NCBI GenBank assembly: GCA_023128195.1
Contig: JAGMEL010000148.1
Coordinates: 1-33,299 of the forward strand
DNA from: a candidate division WOR-3 bacterium
Lineage (GTDB): Bacteria; Hydrothermota; Tepidihabitantia; SM23-42
Length of the DNA: 33,299 bases
Reading direction: 5' to 3'
The notes under the pieces were generated by a model. That model saw nothing but the letters and a program-made list of their open reading frames with translations. It ran no database searches and was not told where the DNA came from. Numbering within the stretch: position 1 is the stretch's first letter; the number at the start of each line of letters is the position of its first letter. The position numbers were made by a program, and so were the translations under genes. Positions 5,668 to 31,930 of the stretch are shown here, piece after piece.

Positions 5668-7176
5668 TCAAAAAGACTTTTTGTCAAGCCTCCATAAGAA
5701 TTCAAACAAGGTTCTAACACTGAATCCTGTGCCGCCTTTGGGTGTGTAAAAACTCTCTTTTTCAGCTATCTCTTTGCCGGCAATATCAATGTGAAGCCAT
5801 TTTGAGTTATTTACGAATGATTGTAAGAATAACCCGGCAGTAATTGCTGATGCTTTTCTTCCACCGGAGTTTTTTATATCTGCAACATCGCTTTTTATCT
5901 GCTCTTTATATTCTTCAAATAGAGGCAATTGCCAGAATTTTTCACCTGTCTCTTTTGATACACTTAATAGATTATCAATAAGTTTTTGGTTATTACCCAT
6001 AACCGCTCCTGCAATATCCCCGAGTGCAATAATACAACCGCCGGTTAAGGTCGCTATATCAATGATTATTTTGGCTTTCTTTTTTTCTGCATAACAGATT
6101 GCATCTGCTAAGGTCATCCTTCCTTCGGCATCAGTCGAGATGATTTCAATAGTTTTATTATTCATTGCGCGTACTACATCACCGGGTCTTGATGCCTTTG
6201 CTGACGGCATGTTTTCTACTGCTGGAATAATGGTCATTAAATTCAGTTTGGTTTTTGCCTTTGCCAATGCCAGGGTCGTACCTATTACAGCAGCACCTCC
6301 AGACATATCGCCTTTCATAAGACCCATATTTGCAGGGGGCTTTAATGATATTCCTCCAGTATCGAATGTGACTGTTTTCCCAATCAAACATACCAATGGT
6401 TTTTTCGAATTCTTGATCCTTAAGATAATAAATTTCGGCTCATTATCACTACCCTGGGCAACTGATATTAATGCACCCATTTTCAACTTTTTAATGTCTG
6501 TTTTATTCAAACATTGGTATTCAATTATTTTTTCCAATCCTGCATTTTTAATGATTGCTTTAATCCCTTGATCCAATTTTTTTGGAGTTAGATTATTAGA
6601 AGGTTCATTTATTAAATCCCGGGCAATATTCTGAGACTCGGCAAGGATTTTTCCTGATTCAATGCCTTTTTGTAGTACTTTTATTTTTGACTTGTCACTT
6701 TCGACAATATATAACTCTTTGATTCCGTTCTCTTCCGGTTTTTTATACTTCTTAAATTCATAGAGCGCAAGTAATGTTCCTTCAATTAATGCCTGCGCTG
6801 CTGCTCCAGGTTCAAGACCTCCGATTCCTGCGCCATGAACAACTGTGCCGACTTTTTTTGACTTTGTTTTTTTCGCCTGTTTTGCTGCAGCACCAGAAGC
6901 CTTTCTTATTTGTTCTAAGCCAAATTCACTTGATTTGCCGAGTCCCACAATCAAGACTTTATCAGGTTTTATTTTCCCAAAGGTATGTAATACTACGCAT
7001 TCTCCGAGCTTACCAGTAATCTCTTTGTTCTTTATAAGTTTTGTGACCATACCATCAAGTGCCTTATTCACAGCATTGGTTGCTCCGCCCGGTGATTTTA
7101 TTCCCTCGAATAAATTTACAATAATAATATCTCCATGAAAATTTATTATTGATTGGTTTAATATATTTATCTTCAT
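5668..7176 (-). CDS. pepA: Leucyl aminopeptidase (M17 family)
   Basis: 502 aa with VTFDTGGISLKP, DMSGGAAV and the NTDAEGR-type signature (STDAEGRMTLAD). Confidence 0.92.
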   Translation of the reverse strand: MKINILNQSIINFHGDIIIVNLFEGIKSPGGATNAVNKALDGMVTKLIKNKEITGKLGECVVLHTFGKIKPDKVLIVGLGKSSEFGLEQIRKASGAAAKQAKKTKSKKVGTVVHGAGIGGLEPGAAAQALIEGTLLALYEFKKYKKPEENGIKELYIVESDKSKIKVLQKGIESGKILAESQNIARDLINEPSNNLTPKKLDQGIKAIIKNAGLEKIIEYQCLNKTDIKKLKMGALISVAQGSDNEPKFIILRIKNSKKPLVCLIGKTVTFDTGGISLKPPANMGLMKGDMSGGAAVIGTTLALAKAKTKLNLMTIIPAVENMPSAKASRPGDVVRAMNNKTIEIISTDAEGRMTLADAICYAEKKKAKIIIDIATLTGGCIIALGDIAGAVMGNNQKLIDNLLSVSKETGEKFWQLPLFEEYKEQIKSDVADIKNSGGRKASAITAGLFLQSFVNNSKWLHIDIAGKEIAEKESFYTPKGGTGFSVRTLFEFLWRLDKKSF

Positions 7177-14145: not shown

Positions 14146-14164
14146 ATTGCAGATCTCAAATTGC
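14146..14164. repeat. Left imperfect terminal inverted repeat of four-helix-bundle cassette 1
   Basis: ATTGCAGATCTCAAATTGC. Its reverse complement matches the core AATTTGA(A/G)ATCTGCA(T/A)T of 14584-14602 at 17 of 19 positions. It is also part of a tandem 14-mer pair, TTGCAGATCTCAAA / TTGCGGATTTGAAG (14147-14174). Confidence 0.6.
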
Positions 14165-14182
14165 GGATTTGAAGGGTGATAA

Positions 14183-14536
14183 ATGAGGAGTGACGAGTTG
14201 AAAAGTCGAACTAAGAAATTTGCCATAGATGTAATAAAATTAGTTGGAATATTTCCGAATACGAAGGCCGCAGATATTATTGGCCGTCAGCTTATAAAAT
14301 CATCGACTTCAGTTGGAGCGAACTATCGTTCTGCATGTAGAGCTCAATCCCGTGCTCATTTTATCTCTAAGCTAAGCATTGTTTTGGAAGAGACAGATGA
14401 GTCGCAGTATTGGTTGGAGCTGGCACTGGTGTTAAACCTCGCTAAACCGAGTAGGATTAAAACGTTGATTAATGAGTCTGGTGAATTGATGGCAATATTT
14501 ATTTCATCTATAAAAACGGCAAGAAAGAAAAAGTGA
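14183..14536 (+). CDS. Four-helix-bundle protein (23S rRNA intervening-sequence protein / Avd family)
   Basis: 117 aa with the family hallmarks QLIKSSTSVGANY and EETDESQYWLEL. Confidence 0.85.
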   Translation: MRSDELKSRTKKFAIDVIKLVGIFPNTKAADIIGRQLIKSSTSVGANYRSACRAQSRAHFISKLSIVLEETDESQYWLELALVLNLAKPSRIKTLINESGELMAIFISSIKTARKKK

Positions 14537-14583
14537 TGAACGACTTGAGTTCTGCAGTTTACTATACAGATAATTTTGCAATT

Positions 14584-14602
14584 TTAAATTTGAAATCTGC
14601 AT
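14584..14602. repeat. Right imperfect terminal inverted repeat of four-helix-bundle cassette 1
   Basis: TTAAATTTGAAATCTGCAT, which ends 6 nt before the thrC-like ATG. Confidence 0.6.
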
Positions 14603-28756: not shown

Positions 28757-29146
28757 ATGATTAAAGGTATAATAGTTGGCCATAGTGACTTTGCAAAAGG
28801 AATGCTTCACACGGCTGAACAGATAGTTGGTAAACAACCTGATCTTGAAATTATTTCTAATAAAGGAATTTCTTGCGAAGTGTTGAGTGAAAGGATCGCA
28901 AAAATTGTCCGTAGTAATGAAAGTCAAGAAACAATAGTTTTTGTTGATTTGCCTGGGGGGAGTTGTACGATAAGCTGTTATGGTTTGTTAAAGGATTATA
29001 ATGAGTTAAATGTAATCGTTGGCGTGAATCTACCTATGCTAATAGAGTTTTTTATGTTACGTGATAAACATTCAGTTATTGAACTCGTTCCCATTTTAAT
29101 TGAAAAGGGAAGAGAAAATATTTTTAAATTGAGGTGCAGAAAATGA
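28757..29146 (+). CDS. PTS EIIA component, mannose/fructose (EIIA-Man) family
   Basis: 129 aa with N-terminal GIIVGHSDFAKG (phosphorylatable His loop) and VDLPGGS. Confidence 0.8.
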   Translation: MIKGIIVGHSDFAKGMLHTAEQIVGKQPDLEIISNKGISCEVLSERIAKIVRSNESQETIVFVDLPGGSCTISCYGLLKDYNELNVIVGVNLPMLIEFFMLRDKHSVIELVPILIEKGRENIFKLRCRK

Positions 29147-30789
29147 ATAAAAAAATCAAATTTTTAGGTGATGTTTTTGAATCGTCAGTAGAGAAATTCC
29201 CGGATAAACTGGCGTTAAAAAAAGATGATACTGAATATACCTATGCTCAACTAAAAGCAGAGGTAATAAAATTAAAGAATCATTTATTAGGTCTTGATTT
29301 GAAAAAAGGAGACAAATTTGCAGTGTTTGGTGAGAATGGGCCAGAATGGGCAATAGGGTATTTAGCTATCGTGCGGGCAGGGTTGATCTGTGTACCAGTG
29401 GACCGTTTGTTATCAGAAGCTGAAATTCTTCACATTCTTCGTCACAGCGAAGCAAGCGGTGTCATTGCTTCGGAAAATTACATCGATAAAATCGAAGCAG
29501 TCAAAGGTGAATTAACCGATTTCAAATACGTGATACCCATGGATAGTATTAAGAAATTAGTGGCTACAAAAGATATCCCTACTGGAAAGCTCGATTCTGA
29601 TTCATTGGCAGTATTGATTTTTACATCAGGCACGACCGGTACGGCAAAAGCAGTTATGTTGAGTCATAATAACATCCTTAGTAATCTAAGAGCTGTTGAA
29701 CAAATGATACCACTAAGCGAAAATGATACACTCGTTTCAATAATTCCTATGCATCACACATTCGAAGGAACTGCTGGGTTTCTTTATCCGTTATATCAAG
29801 GCGCGGCAATTTACTATCCCGCGAGTTTAAAACCAAAGGACATTTTAGAAACAATGAAACTGGCAAAGGTATCTTGCCTTATTGCTGTTCCTCTTCTATT
29901 TGAAAAATTCTTAGGAGCTGTTCACAGGAAAGTCGCGAGCTCATCCTTGCCAACCAAAGTTATGTTCAATGCAATAAGTGGAGTAGGCTCGGTCTTTAAA
30001 TTTTTAAGGAAACCACTTTTTGCAAGGGTGAGAAGAGAGATGGGTCTTGGTAATCTAAGAATTGCATGTGCTGGTGGAGCGGCACTTACAGAAAAGGTTG
30101 CACGGGGATTGAAACTTCTTGCTATACCTATTCTACAGGGGTATGGATTGACTGAAACCTCTCCTGTAATTTCAGTAAGTCCATTAGAAAAGCCAAACAC
30201 TGCTTCAGTCGGGGTTGTTGTTCCAGGTGTTGAGGTTAAGATCAATGAACCCGATGAAAATGATATAGGTGAAATTATCATGCGCGGTCCTAATGTAATG
30301 CTTGGGTATTATAAAAATAAAAAAGCAACAGATGAGATTATAAAGGATGGTTGGTTATATACCGGAGATTTAGGGTGGCTCGATGATGAAGGTTATTTGT
30401 ATATCACAGGTAGGAGGAAAAGTTTAATTGTTACGCAGACAGGTAAGAATATCTATCCTGAGGAGCTTGAAGCAAAACTGCTAAAGAGTCAATGGGTACA
30501 AGAGGTTTTAGTAGTACCAAGAATTGATCCTGAAACAAAAAAGGAATCCATATGCGCTCTGATTTTTCCGGATTATGAATTACTTGAGCAATACAGCATT
30601 TCATCAGATATTACACTAAGTGAGGAAGATATTGAATCAATATTCAAGGATGAGATAAAAAAGGTTAATGAAGATTTACCTGCCTATAAAAAAATTCTTC
30701 AATTTGAAGTCAGGGAAGAAGAATTTCCCAAGACTACGACAAAGAAGATAAAGCGACATATGTTTATTGAAAGAGGAGTAAAGGTTTAA
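29143..30789 (+). CDS. Long-chain-fatty-acid--CoA ligase (AMP-dependent synthetase/ligase)
   Basis: FTSGTTGTAKAV (AMP motif), GYGLTETS, YTGDLG and GRRKSLI. I prefer ATG 29143 (ATGA overlap with the EIIA stop, GAGG 8 nt upstream) over the track's GTG 29134. Confidence 0.88.
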   Translation: MNKKIKFLGDVFESSVEKFPDKLALKKDDTEYTYAQLKAEVIKLKNHLLGLDLKKGDKFAVFGENGPEWAIGYLAIVRAGLICVPVDRLLSEAEILHILRHSEASGVIASENYIDKIEAVKGELTDFKYVIPMDSIKKLVATKDIPTGKLDSDSLAVLIFTSGTTGTAKAVMLSHNNILSNLRAVEQMIPLSENDTLVSIIPMHHTFEGTAGFLYPLYQGAAIYYPASLKPKDILETMKLAKVSCLIAVPLLFEKFLGAVHRKVASSSLPTKVMFNAISGVGSVFKFLRKPLFARVRREMGLGNLRIACAGGAALTEKVARGLKLLAIPILQGYGLTETSPVISVSPLEKPNTASVGVVVPGVEVKINEPDENDIGEIIMRGPNVMLGYYKNKKATDEIIKDGWLYTGDLGWLDDEGYLYITGRRKSLIVTQTGKNIYPEELEAKLLKSQWVQEVLVVPRIDPETKKESICALIFPDYELLEQYSISSDITLSEEDIESIFKDEIKKVNEDLPAYKKILQFEVREEEFPKTTTKKIKRHMFIERGVKV

Positions 30790-30793
30790 CAAA

Positions 30794-30894
30794 CGCAGTA
30801 TCATTCCGCCCCTTTAAAAAATGGGCTGAATTCGCAGGATCACTGCGTTCGCAGGACCGTCCTGCCATTCATTAATGGCGGGACTTGCAGTATC
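30794..30894. repeat. Left array: four copies of YGCAGKAYC alternating with hairpins
   Basis: CGCAGTATC 30794, CGCAGGATC 30833, CGCAGGACC 30850 and TGCAGTATC 30886. Between them are ATTCCGCCCC...TGGGCTGAAT, the palindrome GCAGGAC-C-GTCCTGC, and the hairpin GTCCTGCCATT-CAT-TAATGGCGGGAC. Confidence 0.8.
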
Positions 30895-30924
30895 GTCCTG
30901 ATTAAAGTCAGAATTCGCTAAATT

Positions 30925-31311
30925 ATGAAATTTAAATATGAAGATTTAGAAATATGGCAATTAGCTTTGGAATTGATAAAGATTATTTATCAATTATTAA
31001 AAAAATTCCCGGCGGAAGAAAAATATGATTTGGTTTCTCAAGGCAAAAGAGCAGTTGTTTCTATTGCACTAAATATTGCAGAAGGCAGTGGCCGGCATAC
31101 TGATAAGGATTTTAGTCTTTTTATTAACAGAGCAATAACTTCATTGCAGGAAGTTGATGGAGTATTGAAAATTGGCATGAAATTGAATTACATTACAGAT
31201 GAAGATTATCAGTCTGTAGTACCTCTGATTGAGAAAGAGTATTATAAACTTGTCGCTTTTGATAAAGCGCTTATTAAAGGTGCTACAAAACGACGACGCT
31301 ATGTTCAATAA
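30925..31311 (+). CDS. Four-helix-bundle protein (23S rRNA intervening-sequence protein / Avd family)
   Basis: 128 aa with DLEIWQLA, SIALNIAEGSGR and SLQEVDG, the pattern typical of the family. It is a paralog of 14183-14536. Confidence 0.85.
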   Translation: MKFKYEDLEIWQLALELIKIIYQLLKKFPAEEKYDLVSQGKRAVVSIALNIAEGSGRHTDKDFSLFINRAITSLQEVDGVLKIGMKLNYITDEDYQSVVPLIEKEYYKLVAFDKALIKGATKRRRYVQ

Positions 31312-31423
31312 AACTTGGCGAGCCCTGTGATATAATAACAAATGATTTGCAATTAATTAGGCGGGTAGGTTTGACAACAAAACTAATATAGTTGAAGATA
31401 CAATTTCTTGTATTTCACGGGGC

Positions 31424-31517
31424 GATACTGCAATTCCGCCGAATATCGGCGGAAGATACTGCGAGTCTCGACATTGGTCGAGACGATCCTGCAAGTGCCG
31501 ACAGGTACGATCCTGCG
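31424..31517. repeat. Right array: four copies of GATMCTGCR (reverse complement of the left-array 9-mer) alternating with hairpins
   Basis: GATACTGCA 31424, GATACTGCG 31455, GATCCTGCA 31485 and GATCCTGCG 31509. The spacers are the hairpins TTCCGCCGA-ATA-TCGGCGGAA and GTCTCGAC-ATTG-GTCGAGAC. Confidence 0.8.
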
Positions 31518-31772
31518 TTAGTCCGTTACTTTATAAACTTCATCATGTTCATGAACTGGATTATCAACTTTTAATCCAATATCATCGCCCTTTTTCGCTT
31601 TTTGAATCGATTTGTGCTCAATCTGCATAGAATTGATTACTTGCGTAAAATCAGTGGTATGTCCTTTTATATGAATTGTGTCTCCTACATTCAATTCATC
31701 ACCAATTAACTGTAGAACTGCTACATTTATATTATTAAAACAATGGGTTATTTTGCCAATTAGTTTTTCCAT
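31518..31772 (-). CDS. Small EF-Tu domain-2-like beta-barrel protein (translation elongation factor-like)
   Basis: 84 aa. GDELNVGDTIHIKG...IQKAKKGDDIGLKV resembles the GTP_EFTU_D2 barrel. GGAGGA lies upstream of the ATG. Confidence 0.55.
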   Translation of the reverse strand: MEKLIGKITHCFNNINVAVLQLIGDELNVGDTIHIKGHTTDFTQVINSMQIEHKSIQKAKKGDDIGLKVDNPVHEHDEVYKVTD

Positions 31773-31930
31773 CTGGTCCTCCTTTTAAATTATTTTACTT
31801 ATAAAACCTTCTGTGTCAATAATGAAGTCAAAGACTTAAGATGACAGCGATGGAAAAATAGATTACGGTGATTAAAACATCTCTGTAATCTTATTTATAT
31901 CTTCGTAATCAAGCTGCTTTAAACAGCTCA

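Follow-up and report, generated by a model that had tools for sequence, protein, structure and literature searches.

A four-helix-bundle protein gene and its word-hairpin arrays recur as one cassette at gene junctions of WOR-3-type bacteria

Introduction

Why does a small gene at the junction of two unrelated host genes stand between two mirror-image arrays of a short word, and do the gene and the arrays belong together? The question is raised by positions 30794-31517 of contig JAGMEL010000148.1 (assembly GCA_023128195.1) of a candidate division WOR-3 bacterium; the whole stretch analyzed, 33,299 nt, is called the window. The gene encodes a four-helix-bundle (4HB) protein of family PF05635, which was first encountered in intervening sequences (IVSs) of 23S rRNA. 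Upstream of it lie copies of a 9-mer of the type YGCAGKATC, and downstream lie copies of its reverse complement, GATMCTGCR; we refer to the 9-mers as words and to the two arrays as arms. A sequence-only reading had suggested that such genes and arrays form a cassette family.

To our knowledge, PF05635 is a large, structurally solved and bacteria-wide family that has no known function outside diversity-generating retroelements. Likewise, we know of no explanation for PF05635-bearing rRNA intervening sequences, which have been a puzzle since the 1990s, or for the RNA motif Gut-1, an orphan since 2010. The present finding combines two of these known and unexplained things, an IVS-type 4HB cassette and Gut-1-type word-hairpin arrays, in a new phylum. 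We consider it probable that the locus is an IVS-type PF05635 gene cassette with Gut-1-type arrays as arms and that it works in the manner proposed below.

Results and discussion

The gene and its arms recur together

We inspected the genomic contexts of homologs of the 4HB protein from 98% down to 59% protein identity; some of the loci came from a word-pattern scan. In this 4HB subfamily, each of the 12 distinct cassette versions inspected had such arms, at eight gene junctions, and in every version YGCAGKATC-type words stood upstream and GATMCTGCR-type words downstream, with hairpins or mini-hairpins as spacers. The versions comprised the window, L001-L010, L011-L016/L213, L214/L215/L142, L134, L216 and L022, as well as L027/L126, L122, L275/L277, L279, L281 and L276; the arms were degenerate in L280. 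The junctions were those of ligase and EF-like gene, of carboxyltransferase or enoyl-CoA hydratase and biotin carboxylase, of BCCP and FMN reductase, of carboxyltransferase and cupin, and of glycosyltransferase and PAPS reductase, with three more. The 4HB gene was co-directional with both neighbors at all seven informative junctions (7/7, one-sided p ~0.008), and the hosts were uncultured WOR-3/Stahlbacteria-type bacteria. The cassettes filled whole intergenic gaps, and their arrays were flush with stop and start codons. The arrays and the 4HB gene are one discrete, dispensable and recurring cassette. The proposal of a recurring family is thus upheld by the joint occurrence of gene and arms; the tie that had been drawn to a second locus of the window, cassette 1, holds at the family level only.

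Genes of acyl-CoA metabolism adjoined many of the cassettes or gene-less arms (L022, L027, L122, L216, L275, L277, L073, L046 and the window); they encode ligase, carboxylase subunits, enoyl-CoA hydratase, acyl-CoA dehydrogenase and hydroxyacyl-CoA dehydrogenase/thiolase. A fatty-acid regulon was considered and set aside, as other arrays adjoin genes for RNase Y, a GH57 enzyme and an NtrC-type regulator and the sample is biased by synteny. The acyl-CoA neighborhood may reflect shared synteny rather than targeting. One operon of L216 has two different PF05635 genes (1-275 and 2001-2480), one on either side of a carboxyltransferase gene; GGAATTT/GGATTTT-type heptamer repeats follow the first of them, and the second has word-hairpin arms.

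Anatomy of the locus in the window

Over the whole window, exact GATMCTGCR was found seven times, every copy inside 30794-31517, when 0.64 copies were expected; none of 100 shuffles reached seven. Three of these words are in minus-strand sense (YGCAGKATC on the plus strand, at 30794, 30833 and 30886) and lie upstream of the open reading frame (ORF) 30925-31311. A fourth upstream word, at 30850, is CGCAGGACC, which has one mismatch to GATMCTGCR and fits YGCAGKAYC. The four plus-strand words at 31424, 31455, 31485 and 31509, at spacings of 31, 30 and 24 nt, lie downstream of the ORF. That is, the arms are opposed arrays on both sides of the PF05635 gene, the upstream arm being the reverse complement of the downstream arm. 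The four words on the left, the four on the right and their spacings were all present as the sequence-only reading had listed them, and so were the four hairpins it had named: TTCCGCCGA-ATA-TCGGCGGAA, GTCTCGAC-ATTG-GTCGAGAC, GTCCTGCCATT-CAT-TAATGGCGGGAC (with one G.T pair) and GCAGGAC-C-GTCCTGC. The parts of the locus are as follows.

30787-30789, plus strand: stop codon of the acyl-CoA ligase gene (29134-30789; PF00501, E 1e-80); the cassette begins 4 nt on
30794-30918, plus strand: upstream arm, with words YGCAGKAYC at 30794, 30833, 30850 and 30886
30803-30832, 30842-30849, 30859-30885 and 30895-30915: upstream-arm spacers, namely a hairpin, an 8-nt mini-hairpin, a hairpin and a short hairpin
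30925-31311, plus strand: 4HB protein gene, 128 aa, 23S-rRNA-IVS-protein family, with the basic C-terminal tail KRRRY
31317-31322, plus strand: GGCGAG box, which opens the downstream arm in most cassettes and is here the duplicated site of a nested insert
31323-31422, plus strand: nested stem-loop insert of ~100 nt, resembling a miniature inverted-repeat transposable element (MITE), with ends CCYYGTGAWATA / TATTTCACRGGG
31424-31517, plus strand: downstream arm, with words GATMCTGCR at 31424, 31455, 31485 and 31509
31434-31454, 31465-31484 and 31495-31508: downstream-arm hairpins
31518-31772, minus strand: convergent 84-aa gene, weakly like EF-Tu domain 2; a flanking host gene outside the cassette

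The last downstream word abuts the stop codon (31518-31520) of the convergent 84-aa gene, as had been claimed; on the other side, the arrays start 4 nt, not 5 nt, past the ligase stop. The neighboring genes encode HPr kinase, EIIA, the ligase, the 84-aa protein, a GYD protein and ThiC.

The word is fixed and the hairpin is largely free

For unit statistics, we pooled 121 words from 25 non-redundant regions. The unit consists of the word GATMCTGCR, an A and a self-complementary spacer, which is either an 8-nt mini-hairpin or a hairpin of 5-12 bp. The seven fixed word positions were 93-99% conserved over the 121 units, and the base after the word was A in 95 of them. Meanwhile, third codon positions were 27-61% identical between cassettes whose 4HB proteins were 59-88% identical, indicating that the words are held far tighter than silent sites. 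Variant words shifted in both arms at once: L276 has TGTAGTATC upstream and GATACTACA downstream, and L279 has TGCAGGACC / GGTCCTGCA.

The spacers keep their capacity to fold. The 2-bp stem was retained in 13/13 distinct 8-nt spacers (e.g., AGCGAAGC, AACGAAGT, AGTGAAAC and AATGAAAT), when 8% would be expected to have it, and ten of the 13 had a G-N-A loop. Among the longer spacers, 52/69 folded better than at least 95 of 100 shuffles, and downstream-arm hairpins of the same types as in the window, with compensatory changes, were found in L001-L010, L011, L214 and L022. The hairpins had been described as all different from one another; this is true of the upper stem and loop, which are free, but not of the foot RTCC...GGAY, which is conserved and in which R and Y covary. 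The view that a conserved word and a free hairpin reverse the logic of REP or CRISPR arrays was borne out.

Whole units were gained or lost, in either arm, between 98%-identical strains. A 39-nt unit of the upstream arm is absent in L001-L010 and in run X27, and one public run shows this deletion as a joint; L006, L009 and L010 have an extra upstream-arm unit, and the number of downstream-arm units also differs between strains.

One junction in several states

To follow one junction, we compared the best 80 of 530 metagenome relatives of the 84-aa gene. The ligase/EF-like junction was found in the following states.

Cassette oriented as in the window: L001-L010, L142/L214/L215
Cassette reversed with respect to the two flanking genes: L011-L016, L213, L134
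Degenerate arms around a pseudogene: L145
Arms without a gene: L135, decayed in L144
Short-period arrays of other kinds: L138, L139
Short plain spacer: L143

In addition, L133 lacks the cassette. It is 94.9% identical to the window up to the ligase stop, where homology ends exactly at 30788; homology resumes within the 3' end of the 84-aa gene, at 96.6% identity. In between, an unrelated 131 nt stands where the window has 744 nt. This piece (L133 946-1076) holds an 8-mer array of its own, with ACCAGAAG, ACCAGCTT and ATCAGGTT followed by ATCAGGAT, ATTAGAAT and ACCAGGAA. A search for relatives without the cassette, which had been suggested as a check, was thus answered by a close relative. It had also been held that arms without the gene at an orthologous junction would speak against a cassette; L135 is exactly such a case, and L144 is a decayed one.

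Hairpins such as AGTCTCGAC-NNNN-GTCGAGAC keep to the 3' side of the gene in both orientations. We considered whether the cassette is a site-specific invertible switch (phase variation) that recombines at its opposed words. The finding that related species have the cassette in opposite orientations at one junction would fit such a switch, as would the outermost word beside the ligase stop, which is retained in both orientations. However, the orientation was fixed within each species-level contig group (10 direct, 6-7 inverted), public runs (contigs only) gave no strand-changing joints, and the neighborhood has no recombinase gene. Moreover, either orientation leaves the gene downstream of a co-oriented neighbor, with no apparent on/off logic. 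We regard a switch as very improbable.

Two further observations concern this junction. Heptamer-like arrays (TTCGAAT, TTGTTTC, GTATTTC and GGATTTG) occupy it in L138, L139 and L144. In L140 (228-1214), the 84-aa gene is on the same strand as the ligase gene, 19 nt after it, and not convergent; the 84-aa gene or its block is inverted there.

Arrays without the gene

When species-representative genomes were scanned for runs of three words, at least 116 loci matched; together with 58 viral-contig loci, the matches amounted to at least 181 arrays, of which 137 had periods that were all multiples of 3. The counts that follow are among the matches listed. The multiple-of-3 arrays were mostly coding tandem repeats of unrelated phyla that merely contain the 9-mer, and the viral-contig matches were tandem repeats of the same kind; we make no claim of enrichment of the word across phyla. 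Irregular spacing with dissimilar hairpin spacers was essentially confined to WOR-3, Stahlbacteria and unclassified relatives, with 17 loci. The 4HB gene was present in four of these (L022, L027, L122 and L126), and L035 had a remnant of its 5' end between the arms (1/17). The remaining 12/17 had no gene: in L073 and L082 the gene-less opposed arms are 35-100 nt apart, in L046/L123 the arms surround the nested insert alone, and L026/L084, L044, L061, L078, L097 and L103 have one-sided arrays in repeat-rich spacers. The occurrence of arrays away from the gene, which had been named as evidence against the cassette, was therefore observed in relatives (L073, L082, L046, L026, L044, L061, L078, L097 and L103). 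Among the matches listed, no genome had more than three array loci, and ~360 kb of relatives' DNA fetched for other reasons contained no further word clusters. Considering this rarity together with the decay intermediates L145 and L035, at least some gene-less arms read as derivatives of gene loss.

These loci bear on a further possibility, that the arrays are ordinary host intergenic repeats, acting as mRNA stabilizers or insulators in the manner of repetitive extragenic palindromes (REPs) and the mosaic elements built from them (BIMEs), and that the 4HB gene is a passenger that landed in or near them. The loci without a neighboring 4HB gene, some of them one-sided, are what this would predict, and so are arrays flush against stop and start codons. 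The same junction elsewhere holds other short-period arrays (heptamers in L138 and L139, 8-mers in L133), and heptamer repeats that lie between co-oriented genes, close to stop codons, have been described for Xanthomonas and Nostoc (PMC4692102). REP/BIME/REPIN elements of enterobacteria and pseudomonads are likewise intergenic, at operon junctions, and made of hairpin-unit arrays with a variable number of units. However, a REP has a conserved palindrome and hundreds of copies, whereas the conserved part here is the linker word, with palindromes that are free but for the foot and with few copies. The arrays are too rare to be REP-like. In addition, every member of the 4HB subfamily examined had arms, whichever of the eight junctions it occupied, and the gene remnants inside arms (L035 and L145) show that some gene-less arms are decay products. 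Terminator-like sites were absent from the arms. We consider a passenger gene in host repeats quite unlikely.

The nested insert also bears on this point. It folds as one long hairpin (z -2.4). In L011, L213, L214, L027, L097 and L123, the GGCGAG box is followed by a hairpin and then by the first word, whereas GGCGAG is duplicated around the nested insert in L001-L010, L022 and L046. The insert is present in L001-L010, L022 (two copies) and L046 and absent in L011, L213, L214 and L216. Its right end was also seen next to different flanks in contigs of runs X1 and X26, indicating that it has other copies; it looks like a small MITE inside the cassette. Since an insert at the same GGCGAG box is common to cassettes at different junctions and in different genomes, the arms and the gene were inherited or moved together, contrary to what independent host repeats would give.

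Beside the one-sided array of L097, positions 6900-7000 hold a copy of another dispersed repeat (…GTCATTGCGAGCGACCGTAGGGAGCGTGGCAATCTC…), and L044, L061 and L103 likewise have several unrelated repeats in their long spacers.

The protein and the word

The product of 30925-31311 matched PF05635 (E 8e-30, 103.6 bits against a cut-off of 33.8) and TIGR02436 (E 8e-26, 90.3 bits against a cut-off of 24). It scored 17.9 bits against a cut-off of 80 with NF033474, the equivalog for Avd of diversity-generating retroelements, indicating that it is not an Avd proper. The best solved relative is PDB 2gsc (XCC0516, Xanthomonas; E 7e-21). The collection searched held 408 homologs; protein identity across relatives was 59-98% against a third-codon-position identity of 27-96%, indicating purifying selection. 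The basic tail KRRRY is conserved. None of the viral contigs encodes a relative of the 128-aa protein. A role in anti-phage defense was rejected, with no PADLOC match for either 4HB protein of the window.

The words may be candidate cognate sites, on DNA or RNA, for the 4HB pentamer that the cassette itself encodes, with the hairpins serving only to space and present them. The gene and arms would then be a two-part module for autoregulation, packaging or minimal self-propagation, and pairing between the arms would be incidental. This is the main rival to the pairing model given below; the two overlap, and both may hold. Several observations agree with it. The words are far more conserved than the silent sites of the gene, left-right covariation of words inside cassettes is weak, and variant words track diverged proteins (L276 at 59% and L279 at 62% identity). 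Word spacing is free (0, 4, 8 or 14-30 nt), but the core ATACTGC is constant and persists even in 4HB cassettes of reversed polarity from one Anaerolineae and one Gemmatimonadaceae genome. Each arm has 3-5 words; the solved relatives 2gsc and 2rld have five chains each, and a homopentamer has been described for the Xanthomonas homologue (PMC4990558). The conserved KRRRY tail would suit such a role. However, gene-less arms persist in relatives' genomes, the variant word lineages are few, and the window's other 4HB gene has relatives with quite different arms, so that any code must change fast. On this evidence, the words as pentamer sites are possible, though somewhat unlikely as the full account.

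The cassettes of reversed polarity are as follows. L032 (Anaerolineae metagenome-assembled genome (MAG), 1530-2300) has a 4HB-like gene flanked by contiguous inverted ATACTGC / GCAGTAT heptamers, and L038, L045, L081 and L121, from one Gemmatimonadaceae MAG, have a 4HB-like gene with 13-mer arrays (CGCAGTATC + TGAT). The same Gemmatimonadaceae MAG also has gene-less arrays of this 13-mer.

Folding, transcription and a proposed working

We folded the RNA of 30785-31525 and obtained -235.9 kcal/mol (z -14.4), with the left words paired with the right words and the hairpins as side branches; the inverted repeats I1, I2, I4 and I6 join the two arms. Long-range pairing of the arrays, for which the sequence-only reading had suggested folding the transcript, was thus present in the predicted fold, in part because the arms are inverted repeats. 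In the downstream-arm hairpins, G.U pairs favor the sense strand, 22 to 6. Neither promoter-like nor terminator-like sites were found in the arms, and a role of the arms as terminators was rejected on that ground. Because the 4HB gene lies in sense orientation at its junctions and has no promoter-like site, we infer that it is transcribed by read-through. In a near-identical strain, metatranscriptome contigs represent parts of the ligase gene as well as 31153-31365, in the 3' half of the 4HB gene, which is weak evidence for expression.

We propose that the cassette lives inside host transcripts and would be transcribed by read-through from the host operon. In the single-stranded transcript, each spacer would first fold on itself, setting the words side by side. 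The words of both arms would then pair into a long branched stem or rod, which would finally loop out the ORF, much as the terminal stem does in 23S rRNA intervening sequences that carry an ORF. The stem may be a site of processing, of insulation or of word-specific protein binding, with the pentameric 4HB protein encoded in the cassette as the obvious candidate binder. The arms evolve as whole units are gained or lost, with the exchange presumably taking place between words; orientation can flip, presumably through recombination between the opposed arms, and gene loss leaves solo arms. Movement to new junctions is likewise presumed.

Several findings weigh against this working. The upstream-arm hairpins showed no G.U strand bias (7 to 6), and the metatranscriptome evidence consists of short assembled contigs, none of which reaches the arms. 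Left-right covariation of the two variable word positions within cassettes was weak (p 0.05 and 0.13), so that word pairing across the gene is not demonstrated. One-sided arrays exist and cannot form a long stem. Where words do pair, they give 9-bp helices broken by three-way junctions, and RNase III is generally held to prefer a continuous duplex of ~20 bp, unlike such helices. The same word core flanks 4HB genes at opposite polarity in two other phyla, which fits a duplex or a protein site better than a strand-specific RNA role. As for arrival at a junction, the unrelated 131 nt with its own 8-mer array makes L133 a cassette-free allele, yet not a clean empty site; no target-site duplication for the cassette was found in comparing the window with L133, and no recombinase or transposase was found among the neighboring genes. 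The findings against a pure pairing model favor the word as a recognition site, with the basic-tailed pentameric protein of the cassette as its natural candidate ligand. Even so, we hold the account as a whole, with the pairing model, to be the probable one.

Relation to known elements

The sequence-only reading did not recognize the architecture as a described element. For the combination, this held as far as a full-text literature search went, which returned no description of PF05635 cassettes at operon junctions. It did not hold for the parts: the arm design is that of Gut-1, and a gene within inverted repeats is found in ORF-bearing 23S rRNA IVSs (PMC4990558).

Those of Coxiella, Leptospira and Xanthomonas (Warrier et al. 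2016, PMC4990558) share with the cassette a PF05635 protein inside, an ORF in the sense of the host transcript and termini whose complementarity closes a stem around the ORF, here in the minimum-free-energy fold. Further likenesses are short tandem repeats before the ORF in strain-variable number and a sporadic, dispensable occurrence without a known mobility enzyme (PMC4990558). In Coxiella burnetii, the IVS in helix 45 of 23S rRNA has the same gene family inside its terminal stem, strain-variable tandem heptamers before the ORF and excision by RNase III (PMC4990558). However, the present cassette occupies junctions of protein-coding genes and not rRNA helix 25 or 45, and 30700-31900 gave no rRNA match, so that the rRNA location that defines a 23S IVS is lacking. 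The IVS stem is a continuous 28 bp, whereas here 9-mer words are interleaved with hairpins; gene-less arms and both orientations also occur here.

Gut-1 (RF01706; Weinberg et al. 2010, PMC2864571) resembles the arms in design. In the alignment rows that we consulted, GUGAUAU- or GUGAAAU-hairpin repeats are followed by AUAUCAC-hairpin repeats; that is, as far as those rows go, a short fixed word alternates with free hairpins and is followed by the complementary word with hairpins, as in the window's arms and in the gene-less arms of L073 and L082. The present word differs from that of Gut-1 and is a 9-mer, a protein gene splits the two arms, and the hosts are WOR-3-type bacteria of cold seeps and sediment versus the human gut. 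The RF01706 covariance model gave no match in 30700-31900 at E up to 1, and neither arm taken by itself matched it at E up to 10; no Rfam family matched 30700-31900. The portions of the Gut-1 text and supplement consulted (PMC2864571) name no associated gene family.

Three other kinds of element were considered and rejected. A MITE or DNA transposon would explain the inverted arms, but L133 has an unrelated 131 nt and no duplication, and only the nested insert shows a GGCGAG duplication. In an integron attC cassette, the words flanking each hairpin would be inverse; here they are direct, and there is no core-site motif and no integrase among the neighbors. A diversity-generating retroelement is not indicated by the neighboring genes listed above, and the Avd model scored below its cut-off.

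The locus ties PF05635, rRNA intervening sequences and the Gut-1 design together in a new phylum, and the comparative evidence is unusually clean: one junction shows both orientations, a pseudogene, arms only and absence in a near-identical strain, and the word is almost fixed while the silent sites of the gene are nearly saturated. An answer on whether the 4HB protein binds GATACTGCG, or whether the arms direct RNA processing, would give the family and the repeat class a first function. Going further, PF05635 proteins and word arrays (heptamers, 13-mers and word-hairpin arrays) might form one enzyme-less self-propagating class, in which the protein would read a clade-specific word and the folded arms would be processed out and copied via single-stranded nucleic acid into transcribed junctions; 23S IVS and Gut-1 would then be two faces of the same system. 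This is speculative, and we think it unlikely.

Cassette 1

The window's other 4HB locus, cassette 1 (14146-14602), is similar in that a small 4HB gene lies between mirror-image short-unit arrays, between host genes and in the sense of the operon. It differs in its arms, which are contiguous heptamers (TGCAGAT / CTCAAAT / TGCGGAT), whereas here 9-mers are split by self-folding spacers and the 9-mer is stable across the subfamily. Its protein is 20% identical to the studied one (E 0.79). The word core had been thought to resemble the TGCAGATC flanks of cassette 1; this resemblance was not sustained, as the window has a single copy of TGCAGATC, no more than expected by chance. Judged from their sequences, cassette 1 and the studied locus belong to one broad class and not to one element family. 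Relatives of cassette 1 have quite different heptamers, namely TAAATCC/GGATTTA in L027 (6100-6800) and TTGGGAT in L035 (7150-7800), indicating that the arms of the cassette 1 subfamily turn over fast, unlike the 9-mer word.

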